Shown here in pieces: positions 24,707 through 46,242 of a stretch of DNA of 64,000 nt (positions are counted from its first letter, which is position 1; each line of letters starts with the position of its first letter). A program made the translations under genes and the position numbers. The stretch spans positions 28,584,001 through 28,648,000 of the forward strand of contig CM119372.1 of NCBI GenBank assembly GCA_051294905.1. Reading direction: 5' to 3'. This stretch comes from Botryllus schlosseri (lineage: Eukaryota). The notes under the pieces are model-generated. The model did no database searches. It saw only the letters and a program-made list of their open reading frames with translations, and was not told the origin of the DNA.

Positions 24707-24778
24707 GCAAAAATCACTATGAAGTAGTGTAACTACTAGATAGCCAGTAACGATTTTGAATTGTGTGCAGGTAATCCA

Positions 24779-27333
24779 ATGGAAAAGAGCCGGAAGAGAA
24801 GTTCTCGGACAAGACTGATATGCAAAAGCTGTCGTCGATCCATATCTTCGTCTTCCAAAGAAGATCACATAACGGCTGCTCATGGGGGCGATTGTTCAAT
24901 TGAGTTTAGTGTGGAAGATCATCTTAAACAAAGCAAGCTAACTTTCAAACCCATTGCTCGGCCCATTGAAGTTGAACAGTCTCAGCAGTCAGTACTGGTG
25001 CCAATCGACAGTGCACATGTAAACTCCTGCTCTCCTGAACTTGATATCCCTACTGTGGCAGTGTCTTGTCCTTCAGTGCCAGAAATACCTGTGATAGCGC
25101 CCAGTGATGATGCTTCGTCATCTGTTCCAAATTACAAAACCATTGCAATGTCAAATGTCGATCTTAGATCTAGTAGTGATTTGCAAACATCTGCTAATTA
25201 TAACATTGAACCTCACCAAATAATTCTACAACGGTACAATCCGAAGAAGTATGATGATGAGAAAAGACCAAGAGATTTCAATCCGAAGCTTTTTAAAACT
25301 CACCCCTGGCTAACATTCAACGAGAAGGACAAGACTATAGAATGCTTTCCATGCATGAAATTTAACAAATCGAAGGAGGCATTCAAGTATCTACAATATA
25401 GGATGCCTCATAAGTTGACTATTCATGCAAAGTGTAAGTCTCATCTTACAGCAATGGAAAAATGGGTTAATCTCAAAATCAATTGCTACAAAAAATCTTC
25501 GATTTTGACAAAAATGCGTGCATGCCACCAAGAAGAGGTAATGCAAAACAGGCGCTACTTGAAAGTGATAATAGAATGTTTACTTTTCACTGTGCAGAAA
25601 AATATTGCCCTACGTAATTATACTGAAAACCGACTCCACATTGATGAAAAATCAGATAGCAACCGTGGTAATTTTCTGGAGCTCCTCAATTTCAGGTGTA
25701 AAGACATTCCATGGCTAGCGTCAAGACTGGAGCATTCGTTAGCACTACATAAACAGTGGACATCCCCAATTATCCAAAATGAAATCGTCGATATAGCAGC
25801 TACTCAAGTACAGAAAGCAATTTGTACAAACATTGCTCAAGCTGGGATTTTCAGTCTCATAGTTGACGAGACGACTGATGTTAGTAATGACGAACAATTG
25901 TCGCTTTGTATACGTCATCTGATGCAAGGTCAAATCAAGGAAAGTTTCATTGGTTTTTATAATCCAAAAAACACTGAAGGCGAAACTTTGTTTCTTCTTG
26001 TAAAAAAAGTTTTAGAAGATTTGGGATTGGACATTGAGAATTTGGTTGGACAGTGCTATGATGGGGCTTCTAACATGAGTGGAAAACACAAAGGTATGGC
26101 AACCAGAATACAGAAAATTGTACCACAGGCAGTATATATGTACATTGTCATGCTCATCGTTTGAACTTGGCCCTTCAGGATACTCTGGAAGCAAATGCCA
26201 TTTTGAGAAATGCCCTTGGTTTAATACAGTCGTTGCATAATTTTTTTCACACACCAAAAAGGGAAACTATTCTACGTAGTTTTTCTGATGAAGAGAAATT
26301 TGGCAAATATGTCAAACTGAAAGGAATTTGTGTGACACGCTGGGTATGTCGTTATAAAGCGGTGAAGTCTATAGACATTCAAACCTGCCGAATAATATTG
26401 GCACTAAAAGCTTGCTCAAATGAAAAAGATTCGAAAACCTGTGTTGATGCTGCTGGTCTACTCAAGGCTGTCTGCAATTTTCAATTCCTTTTGGGACTTA
26501 AAATTTTGAATTGGATTTTCAAATTTACTGACAGCCTTTCCACCCATCTTCAAGGGACAGAAATTGATGTAGGAATTTCACAACAACTGGCAACAGCAAC
26601 CATTTCATGCTTGCGTAATGCAAGGACTAAAACGGCATTTCATGGAATCTGGGAAGACGCTTGTAAATCTGTTGAACATCTGAAACGCCAGGATGTTGAC
26701 ATCGAGGTGACTCTACACCAGAGACAGCAGTGGCCATCTAAAAGGTTCCAAGCACTGGTTGGTGAGGATGGTGAGAGGGACGCAACTAGGGGGTTTTCTG
26801 ATGAGGAAAGGATGTGCTATGAAGTGTACTTCGACGCGATTGACAGAATCTCTGCTGAGCTATCTGAACGGTTTGCCAACAACACGTCGAAAGTTCTTCT
26901 GTCGCTAGCAGAAATGGTACAAGGGAAAGGAACTATGGATGACTATAAAAAAATATCAGCCTTTTATTCCATAGATCAGGAATTGTTGGAATCTGAGTGT
27001 ATTCTGTTCCAAAACTTAAATCCGCAAGGTATGATCAAAAGTGCTGGAGAATGTACGGAACTTCTTGTGTCTACTGGCATTGGAAAAACCCTTCCCCATT
27101 TCTCGAGGGCCGCACAGATTTTTGCCACTATTCCTGCGACATCTTGCACTGCTGAAAGGTCTTTTTCAGGGTTGAGAAGGCTCAAGACCTATCTGAGATC
27201 CACTATGGGGCAGCCACGTCTTACTAACATGGCGGTATTATACCTTGAAAGAGACATGACAAATAATATTGATATTGAGGATATCATAGATGTGTTTGGT
27301 ATTCGCCATGGCAGAAACAAATACTTTTTTTGA
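24779..27333 (+). pseudogene. hAT transposase with one 2-bp frameshift at ~26133-26139
   Basis: TTF-type Zn finger (HPWL...CFPC...H...H), SNRGNFLELL, IVDETTD, GQCYDGASNMSG, TRW, IPATSCTAERSFSGLRRLKTYLRSTMGQPRL. Removing one AT from GTATATATG restores AVYVHCHAHRLNL. Confidence 0.93.
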
Positions 27334-29968: not shown

Positions 29969-32585
29969 ATGGACTATCATCTCGATTCGATCATGCTGCT
30001 CTACAATTTGAACAACAGGAGTATACCAAGGCGTATCGTTAGAGACCGGAGTAATACAGTGGAGCACCTATCAAGCGGAGAGTTTGTACATCGTTATCGC
30101 GTGTCCAAGGATTCCTTCATGGTACTCTTGGAGATAATAAAAGACGACCTTCAATACGACTGCAAAAGAAGCCATCCTATTCCTCCCATCTACCGACTAC
30201 TTGCAACCCTACGGTTCTATTCTTCGGTACATTTTCAGAGGACTGACTGAGACTTACTGCAAATGGATAGGACGTCAGTGTGCAGAATTGTTCACCAGGT
30301 GTCAAAAGCAATTGCTAAAAGAAAGCGAAAATTTATAAACTTTCCAAACACGCAGCATCAAATCAATTTAGAACAGATGGCATTTCATAGGGAGCATCAG
30401 TTTCCCGAGGTAATTGGACTCATAGATGGTACACATTAGGGTTGTTCAAAATTTGGAAAATCTTACAAATCCTCCGTTGTAATGTCTTATTCTATAGATT
30501 ATTGATAAAAAACGACACTGAGCCTAAAAAAAGCTTACAGGAACGCCGTTAAGATTTCGTGCAAAGCGTTTGAAAGTAGCTGCCAAAGAATGGGCGTGCC
30601 ACCGACCATCGAACGGCGAGAAGACTAGTAATCACGAAACCACGGCTCTTGATTGGCTGATCGGCTATGCTTCAATGAACACGGCAGCAGCTACTTGCTG
30701 ATTATGTGATCAAGGAGTCTGCTACCGGCGGCGATTCTGGAAGCGCATTGTATGTAGGCTGACAATTAATGATTTAGGATTGATTCAGGGTATGTTGAGG
30801 TACGAAATACATGCTGAACAAACAACAGCTGCTTCATAAATCCGTCTAAAGCATGGCCGCTTTAATGCGAAGGACACCGCCGTAGCCTATATGCCTTGTT
30901 TTCAACGAGGGAAAGCATAGGCGCTTATGCAAGTGGCGACGGATTCCAAGTTTCAGAAAGGATCTATCATTATTGAATACAAATATAAAACTTAACAATG
31001 ACACTACTTTGTCTGTGTGATCTTATTGGGCTCAGGTTGTAGCACATAGTTGAAGTTTTGAAAGCTCTAAGGATCGGCTGAATCAGCGGGTTATGCTTGG
31101 CACTTATCAGATGCTTACAGCAAATTGTATTCACTTGCAAGTGTTGTCAAAGTCCTTAATGCTGACGCAGAAAAGGGGTGTAAAAGTAAGCGCATACTAT
31201 GCTGGACATGATATGTCAAAGTCCTAAATAATCGTGCAGAAAAGGAAAATAAAGGTAAGCACAGACAATGATGCATATTGCACAGTATCCAGCATAGTTT
31301 GTAAGTCATATCCAGCATAGTCTGTGTTTACATTTACACATCGTTTCTGCGGCATCATTAGGGACTTTGTAAACACTTACAAGTGAATTCAATTTGCTGT
31401 AAACATCTGATAAGGGCCAAATTTAACTGTCTGATTCAGCCGATCCCTAGAGCATTCAAAACTGCAACTATGTACTACAACCTAAGCCCAATAAGATCAC
31501 ACAAATTATATTGTCATTGTTAAGCTTTATATTTGTATTCAATAATGATAGATCCTTTCTGAAACTTGGAATACGTCGCCACTTGCATAAGCGCCTATGC
31601 TTTCCCTCGTTGAAAACAAGGCATATAGGCTACGGCGGTGTCCTTCACATTAAGCGGTCATGCTTTAGACGTTTTTGTGAAGCAGCTGTTGTTTGTCCAT
31701 CATGTATTTCGTACCTCAACATACCCTGAATCAATCCTAAATCATTAACTGTCAGCTTACATACAATGCGCTTTCAGAATCGCCACCGGTAGCAGACTCC
31801 TTGATCACATAATCAGCAAGCTGCTGCTGCAGTGGTCATTGAAGCATAGCCGATCAGCCAATCAAGAGCCGTGGTTTCGTGATTACTAGTCTTCTCGCCG
31901 TTCGATGGTCGGTGGTACGCCCATTCTTTGGCAGCTACTTTCAAACGCTTTGCACGAAATCTTAACGGCCTTCCTGTGAGCTTCTTTTAGGCCCATTGTC
32001 GTTTTTTATCAATAATCTATAGAATAAGACATTACAACGGGGGATTTGTAACAATTTCCAAATTTTGGACAACCCTAGTACACATATACCAATTAGATCA
32101 CCTGGTGGACCTAATGCAGAGTTATTCAGGAATCGAAAAGGTTATTTCTCTGTAAATGTACAAGTTGTTTGCAATTCTACAATGGAATTCACGCACATTG
32201 TCGCAAGGTGGCCAGGATCGACTCATGACAGCAGGATATTTGAATCCAGCTCACTTCCTGTGTATCTGTCACGAACGAACAAACTGCTTCTTGGTGACAG
32301 TGGATACCCACTGTTGCAAAATCTGATGACTCCGCTCCTAAATCCTCAATCCGTCGCTGAGAGGCGTTATAATAGATCCCATATATCTACCCGCATTAAA
32401 ATTGAAAGAGCGTTTGGTGTATGGAAGCAAAGGTTTCAATGCTTGATGATTCCACTGCGCACCAGATTAGATAACTCGCTCGTGATAATTGTTGCTACTG
32501 CGTGCATCCACAACTTGTGCATTCGCCGACACGAAGACCTGAGCGACATTATGCAGCTCTCGGATAACGTTGCTGATGTGATAAA
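29969..32585 (+). pseudogene. PIF/Harbinger (HARBI1-like) DDE transposase, interrupted by a foldback element
   Basis: FVHRYRVSK...LATLRFYS...(TGA at 30248)...FPEVIGLIDGTH | insertion | IPIRSP...NRKGYFSVNVQVVC...WPGSTHDSRIF...LLGDSGYP...IERAFGVWKQRFQCL...CIHN. Probable left end TAA|GGGTCGGGTGC at ~29515; right end not found. Confidence 0.92.
30437..32077. mobile_element. 1.64-kb foldback (long-TIR) element
   Basis: Inverted arms of ~775 bp (30437-~31210 and ~31308-32077); termini TAGGGTTGT / ACAACCCTA; perfect TSD GTACACAT at 30429-30436 and 32078-32085. Confidence 0.95.
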
Positions 32586-33842
32586 CAGCACCGTAACTGC
32601 CGCACCCCAAACCCCCCAATTGGGGGGGGGCCAGCTCGACGGGGGCCCAAAATTATTTCGTGAATTAGCATAAATCATAGAGTATTTTTTGAAAATTTAC
32701 GCAATTTTTTCAAATGACCGTTTGTCTTTATTATTGGGTATTGGGCCATTACCGCGCCAAGACCTACCAAGACATACAATCAAGTTTTGGGCCATATAAC
32801 ATGCGACTCCAAGAAGTGTGCCAGAACGATCGGCAGCGAGAAAACCTTGGCCGAAAAGGTCTATGCCCTTATGCTGACCGAAGATTTCGTTATATATACA
32901 AACTACATATAGGTTTAATTGTCCATAGGCGCCTAAATGACTGTCGCCGAATGTTGCTGTCTTTGCAATCTGAACCTCACTAGACAAATACCATCCCGCG
33001 GGGAAAAATTTTATACCAGTGAAGAAATACCAATTTGAAATCGTGTCCGTCTCTTAGTTTAGAAGCTCACGTTTTGGCGATTCTATATTTTTTGTTATAG
33101 CAGACTGAAAGTCACGAAATAACATTATGTAACGAAGTCATATCAACGGGTCCGCCCGCCGAAGATGTTTAATTATTATTTACGGGCTCTCCCGCTTTCC
33201 AGACACTTCACTCGGCTCTACCGGTGAATCTAATTACGTGAGTAGAGAGGACAATAAATTGATAGCATAATATATATGCAATCGCCGATCTGATTGACCG
33301 ATTTTATCATAAATTATCGATAATTTTCGCGCCTCGCGCTGCCTCACAATACAGTACAGATGATGTCGTGACAAACGCGAACAACGTGATGGGGGGTCGT
33401 TTTACACCCTATGGGGGCCCAAGACCCACGTTTTTGGGGCCTGACGAAGTACTGTTTCGTTCCTGCCAATGGGTATACGCCCGAAGATGTTTAATTATTA
33501 TTGAGTCGTCCTACCTTTTCAAACACACCTCACTCAGCTCTACCGGCAAATCTGATTACGTGAGCAGAGAGAAGATAAAAATTGATAACAATATATATGC
33601 AATTCCCGATCATACTGACCGATTCAATCATGAATTCGAGAAATTTTGCGCGCTTCGCGCGCTTAGGCGACAAAAGCTGATTCGCTAAACAAACTCCCAA
33701 CAATATGATAAATAGCGGTAAACAGGGTATCGCTGGAGGGGGATCTGGGGGGCGAAGCCTCCCAGAAGTTCGGCCTATAACCCTATGCGGGGCCCAAGAC
33801 CAAAGTTTTTGGGGGGCCTGACGAAGTGCTGTTACGGCCCTG
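32586..33842. mobile_element. Non-autonomous DNA element (CAG(G/C)NCCGTAAC termini) with an internal ~320-bp duplication
   Basis: Ends CAGCACCGTAAC and GTTACGGCCCTG; homologous partial copies at ~39350-40047 (+), ~53270-53590 (-) and ~53820-54398 (-); TSD not evident. Confidence 0.7.
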
Positions 33843-43062: not shown

Positions 43063-43517
43063 GTAAAAAATGTGCGCAGTAGCAATGTGTGTAATAGCAA
43101 TAGTTTGAATAAAGGTTTGGCTATGTGATATATAGCTGAACTGAGTATTCAATGATAACTCAATAATTTCTGGTAGACGTTCGTTTTATATTCTTTCAAT
43201 AATCTCAGAAGCTGTCGCTGTACTCTGTCACTCGGTTTGAAGTGGCATGCAGATATTTCTACTTATACTTCAAACTTGTCCAAATGCTAAATTCGTCATT
43301 AGTCGATGTTCATGTTCTTCAAGTTTATCGGTCATCAACATAGTTTACTGTCAGCATTTCTTATGGAGTGGACTATGCCGGTCCTATACATTTCACCTGC
43401 ACGGTGTACATACACGACAGTGTCAATTATCTCATTTATCCCTCTATCTCCAAGACAACTCCATTGTTTTATCACGCATACAGATAGGAGATTTGAATTT
43501 GAAAAATAACTGACGAT

Positions 43518-44731
43518 ATGAGGGGACTAGTACTTGCAACTTTTCTGGTGCTGGCTATGGTGACATCGAGCCATGCATGGCTTCATGTTCACTTTCATTT
43601 TGGGTAAGATTTATCAATATACATATCTTCTATCATAATTGATCTTTGGAAACGCCTCGCACATTGCTCCAAACGCCTACCCCATTCCATATAACAGATT
43701 TATGACATCATCAATATTGGTCGGTCGTTTAAATTCACTAACAAGCGACCCTCACGTTCCGACATAACCCATATGCGATTGCTAGATCGAGCAGAAGTTG
43801 AAAGCAAAATGAATAGGCGCTGTGTGACGCTTTATTTACTCCGTTTCGTTATAAGGCCGGAAAAGATTGACCTGACTCCCCGCACTTACGATCTTAATTC
43901 TTATTAAGACACTATTACTTCAATCGAGTCGCAGTGATTCGTGACATTGGCAAAATACTTTTCCACTTTCCATAGGTGCTATTAATGTCCACTTAATTTA
44001 CTAGGGTTAATGTTTGCTTACTTTGCAGGGATGAAGCGGGAGAGCCTGGCGAACATGAAAAGCCGGAGGAGCACGAGGGTGAGAGGCATGAAGATGTACA
44101 TTTTCACTGGCGTCCTGCGAGTAGGAGGTAAGATTCAACGATATATAAATATGTGAATTGTACCATTGTACAAAGATTGTATCGGTCGAAACATCTCGTA
44201 CATTACCTTAGATGCCTCATCTATTCCTCGCACCAGATATAGTCACCGTCAATATGATTTGGTATAGGTCGCTGACGACCAACCGAGGGATCGTCAGCGC
44301 ATTCTGGTAAACCAGAAGTTGAAACTAAAATCAGAGGGAGCTCTGTGACATGTTATTTGCCTTGTTCTGTTATCAGACTGGAAGAGATTGTGCTACCTCG
44401 TCTTAGAAACTCATAATTTTCATCATTGAGGCATTATCATATTAAAGGCACGCGAGTTTCGGGACAATGGCTTAATACTTTTGCGCATTCCAGATGCCAA
44501 TGTGTCCACCTAATTTACGAGGGTCAATGTTTGCTTACTTTGTAGAGATGAAGAGGGAAAGCACGAGGAGCACGAACATGAGAGGCATGAAGATATTTCA
44601 GGTATTATTCCATATTGTTTCTAAAGATAATGCAAATCCATCATTTTCGCTATACCCTATTCACAGCCATGCTGAGGGATATCATCCAGCAACATCGTAA
44701 CGACGGGAATGCGGCAAACTCCTTTCAGTAG
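43518..44731 (+). CDS. Spliced secreted His-rich peptide precursor, plicatamide-like (101 aa); coding exons 43518-43603, 44029-44127, 44546-44601, 44667-44731
   Basis: Manual splicing at GT-AG sites with consistent phases (2,2,1) gives MRGLVLATFLVLAMVTSSHA|WLHVHFHF-G-DEAGEPGEHEKPEEHEGERHEDVHFHWRPASRR-DEEGKHEEHEHERHEDIS-AMLRDIIQQHRNDGNAANSFQ*. Signal peptide is hydrophobic and ends S-H-A. Donors GTAAGA, GTAAGA, GTATTA; acceptors TTTGCAG, TTTGTAG, TTCACAG. If the last 65-nt intron is retained, the ORF ends ...DISGIIPYCF* at 44624. Confidence 0.85.
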
Positions 44732-45070
44732 GAAGAATGCAGTCTTGATTTAATATCTCAAACCGGCGCAATCATCGGATGTGATTAAGAATAGAAAAAA
44801 TACATCATGTAATTCAAAGCAACGTGATATATTTGCTTCCTACCTTCGGGTGTTCTATGAAGGACTGAAATATTTCTGAAATGGGTTATGACAGAGAGAG
44901 AGAGAAAGCATTTATTTTCATCCAACCGAAATACCCAACAAACTGGCAGCAATAACAGTGGTACAGAAAATAGGCACGTACTGGATACGGTATTAAATAG
45001 GAATGGTCGATCCGACCTTTCATATAAACTATATAGTCTGATCCCACCCGCTTCAAACATGCCTCTACAC

Positions 45071-46175
45071 CAGGGGTGGGCAAACTACGGCCCGCGGGCC
45101 GCATGCGGCCCGCAACACCGTTCTGTGCAGCCCGCGAGAGTCTAAAAAAAGTTTTTTTTAAATATTGATAAAATGCAGTGGTTCTCAAACTTGGGAGCGT
45201 AAAAGCATCAGAAGTGGGGCGCAAAGCTGAGCTCAACTGAAAAAAATGTTCGCGCTCCGCGCGATTTACCAACAATTTCATGATTCTTGCTCTGTATTTA
45301 GTTTGAATTTCACATTTAAAAATCTCTCATCCATAGTCGTAACCTTCCATGCCATCAAACTATCCGTTAGGTTTGCTATATAGCAACCTTGTTGCATTTT
45401 GTGATATGACGGTGAGGGGTCGCGAAATCTTTCATCATTATAAGGGGGAGGGGGCGTATCTTAATAAGTTTGAGAACCACTGTGCTAAGGTAAATACTTC
45501 CTATATTATTTTTGATGTTTAATTTCTGGCGTGACAGCTTGATCTCAAGGCCCACACAGTTTGAAAGGTTTCAACTGCTAAACATCACAGATATCCTAAA
45601 CGAGATTGACATAATTCGGATCACGAGTAGAATTTCAGATTGGCCACTCCAGTTTTATTTATTTTAGTGATGTGCTTATAAAAAACGATTCGCGCGTATC
45701 TTAGGTAGATTCGTTCTCTGTATGCGTAGAATTGGGGCATTTATATTTTATCTACACATAGTAAAAGCGTGTTTGAAGCTACCATGGTTATGATTCTGTG
45801 AGCATTGTGTGTCCTGGAACTGAACCAAAAGATAAATTAGTAAATCTATGAACAGATCGCTGCTCACAGATTTAAATTTCAATCCTGTTCTAAGAATCGG
45901 GACAACCGACTTTCATCTCTATAGTTTTGACAAATTGGTTATTGAGCTCGACCAGACTATGAAATCTCGCCACTATCTTTCTGACGCGTGTACGATATCA
46001 CCAAAGCAATGTTTGGTTTGTTTCAAATAAGCACATATATTATCTCCATGTCCTCACTATATAATCAAATACCAATATTGCGTTTTGGTTTATAGTCCCA
46101 TTTTATATAGTGCGGCCCGCGAATGGATTCAGATGTTGAATGCGGCCCGCGAGCTTAAAAGTTTGCCCATCCCTG
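45071..46175. mobile_element. Charlie-type non-autonomous element with nested MITE 45176-45482
   Basis: TIR CAGGG(G/A)TGGGCAAAC; perfect TSD CTCTACAC at 45063-45070 and 46176-46183. Confidence 0.9.
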
Positions 46176-46242
46176 CTCTACACAGACAATTTTGACCATC
46201 AGGTTGGAGTACAGCAGTACAGGCTCGGATTCACATACAAGC

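Follow-up and report, generated by a model that had tools for sequence, protein, structure and literature searches.

A trans-spliced four-exon gene of Botryllus schlosseri with an internally duplicated acidic region, a candidate precursor of a short His/aromatic peptide

The window analysed here, a stretch of 64,000 nucleotides from Botryllus schlosseri (assembly GCA_051294905.1, contig CM119372.1, positions 28,584,001 to 28,648,000), contains a precursor gene of four exons on the plus strand. The structure was established by the alignment of RNA reads and contigs to the locus, with evidence coming from 8 of 24 runs and 5 studies. The translation of the four exons gives a spliced product of 101 residues, in which a predicted signal peptide of 20 residues is followed by WLHVHFHF (core 1), Gly, an acidic spacer of 22 residues, VHFHWRPASRR (core 2, VHFHW, with a basic tail), a second acidic spacer of 16 residues and a C-terminal tail of 23 residues. 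The features, in positions of the window, are as follows.

43484..43603, plus strand: exon 1, with a short 5' UTR after the trans-splice acceptor, ending in phase 2 (RNA depth and joint 43603>44029)
43518, plus strand: ATG, start of the CDS in exon 1
43518..43577, plus strand: predicted signal peptide of 20 residues ending S-H-A (hydropathy and -3/-1 heuristic)
43578..43601, plus strand: core 1 WLHVHFHF, the predicted main product; next come Gly, with its codon interrupted by intron 1, and Asp
43604..44028, plus strand: intron 1, 425 nt, GT-AG, phase 2 (RNA joint)
44029..44127, plus strand: exon 2, 99 nt, phase 2-2, with spacer 1 and VHFHWRPASRR, almost always included (RNA)
44128..44545, plus strand: intron 2, 418 nt, homologous to intron 1 over its whole length
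44546..44601, plus strand: exon 3, 56 nt, phase 2-1, with acidic spacer 2
44602..44666, plus strand: intron 3, 65 nt, phase 1 (RNA joint)
44667..~44822, plus strand: exon 4, with the C-terminal tail, the stop at 44731 and a 3' UTR to poly(A) near 44822

The joint of exons 1 and 2 was detected in 7 of the 8 runs, whereas those of exons 2 and 3 and of exons 3 and 4 (44601>44667) were detected in all 8; the poly(A) end of exon 4 was seen in one contig. The signal peptide heuristic relied on a basic start, a hydrophobic stretch with a mean of 2.9 over 10 residues and an S-x-A end. The mature chain of 81 residues has 13 His and a net charge of -13, including 3 His and -9 in spacer 1 and 4 His and -7 in spacer 2. 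An earlier note, made from the letters of the DNA, had correctly seen that an acidic DE..EEHE.ERHED spacer opens two exons and that the first of these runs into VHFHWRPASRR. The first core that it named, HVHFHF, is also there, but the full core is WLHVHFHF, eight residues directly after the predicted signal peptide. The end of the gene had been missed, as the second acidic exon (44546-44601, phase 2-1) is followed by a fourth exon at 44667-~44822. Inverted-repeat elements were located just downstream of the gene, at 45066-46180 and 45176-45482, and transposase remnants of hAT type and DDE_Tnp_4 were identified in the window at 24740-27333 and 32023-32673.

The 5' end of the mRNA carried a non-templated leader, detected on 177 reads in run X23 and also in X22 and X24. 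The 22 bases of the leader were not found upstream of the gene; 254 dispersed copies exist in the genome, followed by AG-GT in two of the four loci read, and a trans-splice acceptor AG lies at 43482-43483, just 5' of exon 1. Because of the non-templated leader, its dispersed copies and the acceptor AG, the mRNA is considered to be made by spliced-leader trans-splicing, with what we take to be the known stolidobranch leader.

The expression amounted to 162-485 reads per million records in five raw-read runs, counts that take in close paralogues. In the single-cell runs X20, X21 and X23, diagnostic bases were found at 48-56% and 74-76%, matching the 2-of-4 and 3-of-4 split of four near-identical gene copies, so the window copy accounts for approximately a quarter of the reads. 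These are the proportions to be expected if the four copies contribute equally.

Exon 2, with its length of 99 nt and phase 2-2, can be skipped without loss of frame and both of its joints were present in RNA reads, in agreement with the earlier note. The alternative splicing suggested on this basis was not borne out. The inclusion of exon 2 was documented by 1,362 reads across the exon 1-exon 2 joint and 5,002 across the exon 2-exon 3 joint in five raw-read runs, counts on which the preference of single-cell libraries for the 3' end bears, and no GT-AG joint of exon 1 to exon 3 occurred among the joints listed for the 8 runs. Eight reads in X22, 1.3% of the exon-1 joints of that run, joined a divergent exon 1, at 43577, to exon 3, at 44546, with unplaced letters between and may represent rare skipping or a single-spacer allele or paralogue absent from the assembly. 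As no clean skip joint was listed and at most these 8 reads are ambiguous, exon 2 is constitutive or nearly so in the sampled runs. A contig from X13 joining 43597 to 44546 was rejected as an exon skip, having about 108 unplaced letters between these positions and 22 differences in exon 4, and was taken for a diverged paralogue possessing an exon 2 of its own.

The two acidic exons are parts of a larger internal duplication. The repeat of an intron end plus exon start reported in the earlier note was confirmed, with 43986-44059 and 44503-44576 being 82% identical over 74 nt, but the extent proposed was too small, as whole introns and the end of core 1 are included. Introns 1 and 2 were identical in 290 of 383 alignment columns (76%) from end to end, and the alignment score of 307 compared with 98 +/- 10 and a maximum of 144 in 200 shuffles (z = 20). 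The match between the copies starts inside core 1, and VHFHW echoes the end of that core by alignment. The two units, with inferred breakpoints, are given below.

43587..44095, plus strand: duplicated unit, copy 1, with the last five core residues, intron 1 and spacer 1
44096..44594, plus strand: duplicated unit, copy 2, with VHFHW and the basic tail, intron 2 and spacer 2

In the simplest history, about 500 bp reaching from Val24 through the spacer would have been duplicated in tandem, most likely when the spacer end and the middle of core 1 recombined by unequal crossing-over. Through a crossover inside core 1, copy 2 would have lost both the signal-peptidase site and the W-L/F-H start and acquired a new basic tail. 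In the same simplest history, exon 2 would be a chimera of the old spacer, the last five core residues and a short basic tail, and the alignment supports the derivation of core 2 from the end of core 1. Matching introns of paralogues from the same cluster on C2 were 79-82% identical, whereas introns 1 and 2 within one gene were 74-77% identical. Because the introns are closer between paralogues than within a gene, the duplication is judged to be older than the split of the C2 paralogues.

The gene belongs to a family, identified in 970 kb examined around two clusters and by genome-wide searches, the results of which are lower bounds. The C2 cluster (28.42-28.74 Mb) has six intact genes, four of them near-identical copies in segmental repeats of 98-99.8% identity and two more diverged, each of them represented among the RNA contigs; the count may mix tandem copies with co-assembled haplotypes. 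Their first cores are WLHVHFHF-G (two genes), WFHVHFHI-G (two genes), WFHVHIHC-G and WFHVHLHNC-W, and their second cores with tails are VHFHWRPASRR (four genes), VHEHLNPARRK and VHAHLNLPRTK. A variant known from the RNA of X22 has a core 1 ending in H-W-K (302 reads) and VHIHVHPASRK as core 2. All six C2 genes carry exactly two spacers, and the variation in cassette number anticipated in the earlier note was thus not observed among them. C2 also has, at 28457.8 kb, an orphan exon 3-4 that contains a stop, and a look-alike with the His motif at C2:28359593 was rejected, lacking a start and a signal peptide.

The second cluster, on C13, was found via a weak match (E 4.5) and contains four predicted intact single-core genes with the cores WLTLGFHW-G, WIFHFHF-G, FMFRWHW-G and FLFHFHF-C. 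The predicted genes have three exons, a phase-2 intron after the core, Asp as the next residue, one spacer (in 4 of 4) and a short phase-1 last intron; their downstream exons are predictions from DNA. The spacers are His-poor, and the core-Gly-Asp start is kept. A profile of the C13 first exons placed the C2 first exons at the top among 29,584 C2 frames of 650 kb (best E 0.004), whereas the C2 tails were not recovered with a profile built from six C13 tails, and kinship of the two clusters is for this reason likely, not certain. A shared 'follower' tail of the C2 and C13 genes obtained no support from the profile search. If the kinship is real, the C13 genes would show the state before the duplication. 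The region C13:12.74-12.88 Mb also holds one frameshifted copy with a stop in the last exon and three orphan last exons. The family count leaves out a gene at C13:12733865 that encodes a signal peptide, a head rich in Arg, Tyr and His runs and three Cys, and in which a phase-2 intron precedes an acidic exon.

The segments of the precursor differ in conservation. Pairwise residue differences among the three diverged C2 types, with non-independent pairs and one codon of one paralogue excluded, amounted to 4/60 in the signal peptide, 7/24 in core 1, 10/66 in spacer 1, 17/33 in core 2 with its tail, 14/48 in spacer 2 and 18/69 in the C-terminal tail, which makes core 2 with its tail the fastest-changing protein segment. 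The non-synonymous divergence of core 2 (0.30) exceeded the divergence of introns (about 0.18-0.21), based on small counts and non-independent pairs. VHFHW was changed in both diverged paralogues and in one RNA variant. It is therefore not the conserved core that the earlier note took it for, and lack of conservation in homologues was one half of what the note itself had named as speaking against its view. In contrast to core 2, core 1 (WLHVHFHF/WFHVHFHI) is conserved, and its boundary is well kept across the family: all 10 of the 10 intact genes have Asp after the core, preceded by Gly in 8 of 10 (6 of 8 distinct cores), and His stands three residues ahead of Asp in 9 of 10. Because two genes have Trp or Cys instead of Gly and one RNA variant has Lys, amidation is not universal in the family.

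The layout of the precursor resembles that of known ascidian peptides. In excerpts of PMC7387483, styelins and clavanins are described with a signal, an active part and an anionic pro-region and with cleavage before Asp; both are reported to be amidated, and clavanins are His- and Phe-rich (excerpts of PMC7387483, PMC10608444 and PMC8719109). As far as these sources describe them, styelins, clavanins and Ciona LCAMP have in common with the window gene the predicted signal peptide, the active part, the anionic C-terminal pro-region and the Asp boundary. They differ in being cationic helices of 23-32 residues, while the family cores have 7-9 residues in a beta-strand-like pattern and contain no Arg or Lys except for one Arg in one C13 core. 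Moreover, the pro-region of the window gene is internally duplicated, and no sequence match to these precursors was found. Botryllin of B. schlosseri (excerpts of PMC9966394) shares the small secreted prepropeptide, the acidic pro-region and the phase-2 first intron. It is, however, a separate gene on C11 encoding a cationic peptide of 37 residues, with the first intron inside the mature peptide and the second apparently in phase 0 (by eye), so that the window gene was rejected as botryllin. The botryllin gene and a second close copy were located at C11:9117417 and 9172179. A published botryllin primer (PMC9966394) has an exact match on C11, where the exons around it code for the N-terminal epitope given in that paper, which identifies the genome as that of B. 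schlosseri or a very close relative.

The main reading of these data, to which a probability of roughly 0.55 is assigned, is that the four-exon gene gives a 101-residue predicted-secreted precursor and, from it, a His/aromatic octapeptide that is likely amidated and probably serves in defence, core 2 being mainly pro-region. The gene is best read as a styelin/clavanin-style prepropeptide, with its processing deduced by analogy. Signal peptidase would cut after Ala20, and a protease would cut in front of Asp30, as in styelins and clavanins. A Gly after a peptide is the usual amidation signal, and Gly29 would be used by peptidylglycine amidating monooxygenase to give WLHVHFHF-amide, with a predicted MH+ of 1121.58 (1122.56 for the free acid), WFHVHFHI being isobaric with WLHVHFHF. 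Matches to the family of this monooxygenase occur in the genome, with none close to the clusters in lower-bound searches. The acidic His-rich pro-region may hold the peptide soluble and inactive during storage. Action on microbial membranes or binding of Zn/Cu is reported for plicatamide and clavanins, and the product may have the same activities. The shortened core 2 likely serves mainly within the pro-region. Of the spacer-core precursor proposed in the earlier note, the secreted type, the acidic spacers and the symmetric exon made by duplication stand, whereas the repeated conserved cores do not.

The likeness of core 1 to plicatamide leads to a more specific reading. Both are octapeptides in which His alternates with hydrophobic residues, and the register is shared; the window core is identical to plicatamide at four of seven positions and two sister copies at five of seven (plicatamide residues 1-7 taken from an excerpt of PMC3039461). 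Only 8 of 1,334,869 background 7-mers scored as high as the window core against these residues, and 6 of the 8 were C2 cores, giving background rates of about 6e-6 for 4/7 and about 1.5e-6 for 5/7 identity in a comparison that was chosen after the core had been seen. The plicatamide source and B. schlosseri presumably belong to the same ascidian family. Plicatamide has a C-terminal Tyr, whereas window-type cores end in Phe, Ile or Cys (Trp in the RNA variant) followed by Gly. Since no core has the needed C-terminal Tyr (0 of 10 cores contain Tyr at all), the gene would at best work like a plicatamide precursor, and does not encode plicatamide itself. The His/aromatic likeness can also be convergence. 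A plicatamide-class gene family, with signal-core-acidic precursors, amidated or oxidised cores, a Styela orthologue ending in Tyr, fibrils with Zn/Cu and a second product emerging, is accordingly held as a tentative extension that is less probable than the main reading. Designed catalytic amyloids such as IHIHIQI and IHVHLQI (as described in part of PMC9656882) alternate His and hydrophobic residues over 7-8 positions, as the window core does. They are synthetic, N-acetylated heptapeptides with two His, while the window core is natural, has three His and would have an amide end only if the proposed processing holds; the likeness to metal-binding amyloid peptides is treated as a resemblance only. 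If the family is of the plicatamide class, the released peptide would be a natural counterpart of the designed catalytic amyloids, restrained by an acidic pro-region, and the C2 duplication would represent a second product being born.

The flanks of the two cores differ: core 1 has the signal site before it and Gly-Asp after it, whereas core 2 has Asp before it and basic residues, then Asp, after it. The release of the pentapeptide VHFHW (predicted MH+ 725.35) is unlikely, because no basic site lies ahead, no Gly behind and Arg-Pro comes next. A cut before Asp could, in contrast, free a core-2 peptide of 12 residues. It is on the whole doubtful, though worth weighing, that the precursor yields two products, with the Asp-directed protease also freeing D-VHFHWRPASRR or a trimmed form (predicted MH+ of VHFHWRPAS, 1136.58). 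Asp51 and Asp63 flank the segment, which the same cut would therefore release, and V-H-x-H, the basic C-terminus and the exon length of 99 nt are kept in six genes and likewise in the X22 variant, V-H-x-H and the basic end being constant in all four variants seen. Positions 3 (F/E/A/I) and 5 (W/L/L/V) vary, however, the dibasic end is missing in one paralogue (T-K), the Gly, an upstream basic site and the W-L/F-H start of core 1 are absent, and no signal can be seen for the cut at W-R or R-P on which the pentapeptide would depend. The rapid change of core 2 can mean diversifying selection; a relaxed remnant and a diversifying second peptide both fit the substitutions.

Maturation of the plicatamide/halocyamine type, in which the C-terminus of the core would be oxidatively decarboxylated to an enamide (predicted MH+ 1076.56 for WLHVHFHF), possibly with Trp bromination, and the family would be a ribosomal source of this chemistry, appears unlikely. 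The octapeptide length and the register match plicatamide, and His-Trp forms the end of two intact C13 cores and of the X22 variant, comparable to the His-bromodehydrotryptamine of halocyamine B from Halocynthia roretzi (excerpt of PMC8719109), which has His and a Trp-derived unit at its end. Halocyamines are, however, tetrapeptides with DOPA according to that source, and the window core ends in His-Phe. Furthermore, the routes to dehydro products discussed in the available part of PMC3039461 begin at Tyr or DOPA, while the family cores are free of Tyr, cores ending in Ile or Cys cannot yield an aryl enamide, and Gly follows most cores. Candidate enzymes are well represented in the genome, with at least 21 exon-level matches to copper type II monooxygenase (PF03712) and at least 22 to tyrosinase (PF00264), yet lower-bound searches for these two families gave no match within 1.5 Mb of either cluster, the nearest being PF03712 at about 2.3 Mb from the C2 cluster and PF00264 at about 1.6 Mb from the C13 cluster. 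PF03712 matches were distributed over at least about a dozen loci (C2:31.0-37.8 Mb and others), including a tandem group at C2:36.8-37.0 Mb, which is possibly an expansion relevant to peptide modification.

It is more improbable still that the protein stays uncut and that, once secreted, the acidic His-rich chain has a metal-binding or structural function, the duplication having added binding sites. The His content and negative charge of the mature chain and the conservation of spacer 1 are in line with such a role, but the C13 relatives keep the core-Gly-Asp start with spacers poor in His, and the layout agrees with known cleaved precursors. A neuropeptide or hormone precursor, which would share the signal peptide, Gly amidation signal, one dibasic site and acidic spacers, is the least credible option, as no Gly-Lys/Arg-Arg follows core 1, the three exon peptides gave no Pfam match, and the high expression, the allelic diversity, the broken copies and the recent amplification in tandem are more in keeping with defence peptides.

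Searches for protein homologues were performed with exon pieces of 20-44 residues, and blanks obtained with such queries are weak. Among 2,793 candidates, no homologue was found besides two chance matches to a bacterial-looking signal peptide, and further protein searches with exon-sized queries confirmed none of 724 and none of 3 candidates. Exon-sized queries also gave no match in the representative-protein search at E 0.001 or in PDB; from the ESM Atlas they drew unnamed bacterial clusters only, all of them weak, the recognition score being low. None of 174 pattern matches in metagenome contigs was confirmed, and the three exon peptides had no Pfam match. In the literature searched, which included few subscription journals and no supplements, the cores were not described and the core string led to unrelated papers only. 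A plicatamide precursor gene was likewise not described in this literature, which lay outside the primary plicatamide papers.

The preferred reading, an amidated octapeptide released from a styelin/clavanin-style prepropeptide, combines a known layout of signal, core and acidic region with what appears to be new here, namely a very short plicatamide-like core, a ten-gene family and an internal duplication. The multi-core and splicing story is the weaker part. A 2010 review (PMC3039461, excerpt) left open whether plicatamide-like tunicate peptides are ribosomal and where they are made. An abundant spliced gene with a core in the plicatamide register, ten members and predicted masses would make a ribosomal origin directly testable, and the very short candidate defence peptides that this family offers in a colonial model chordate are of a kind that screens based on helices would overlook.
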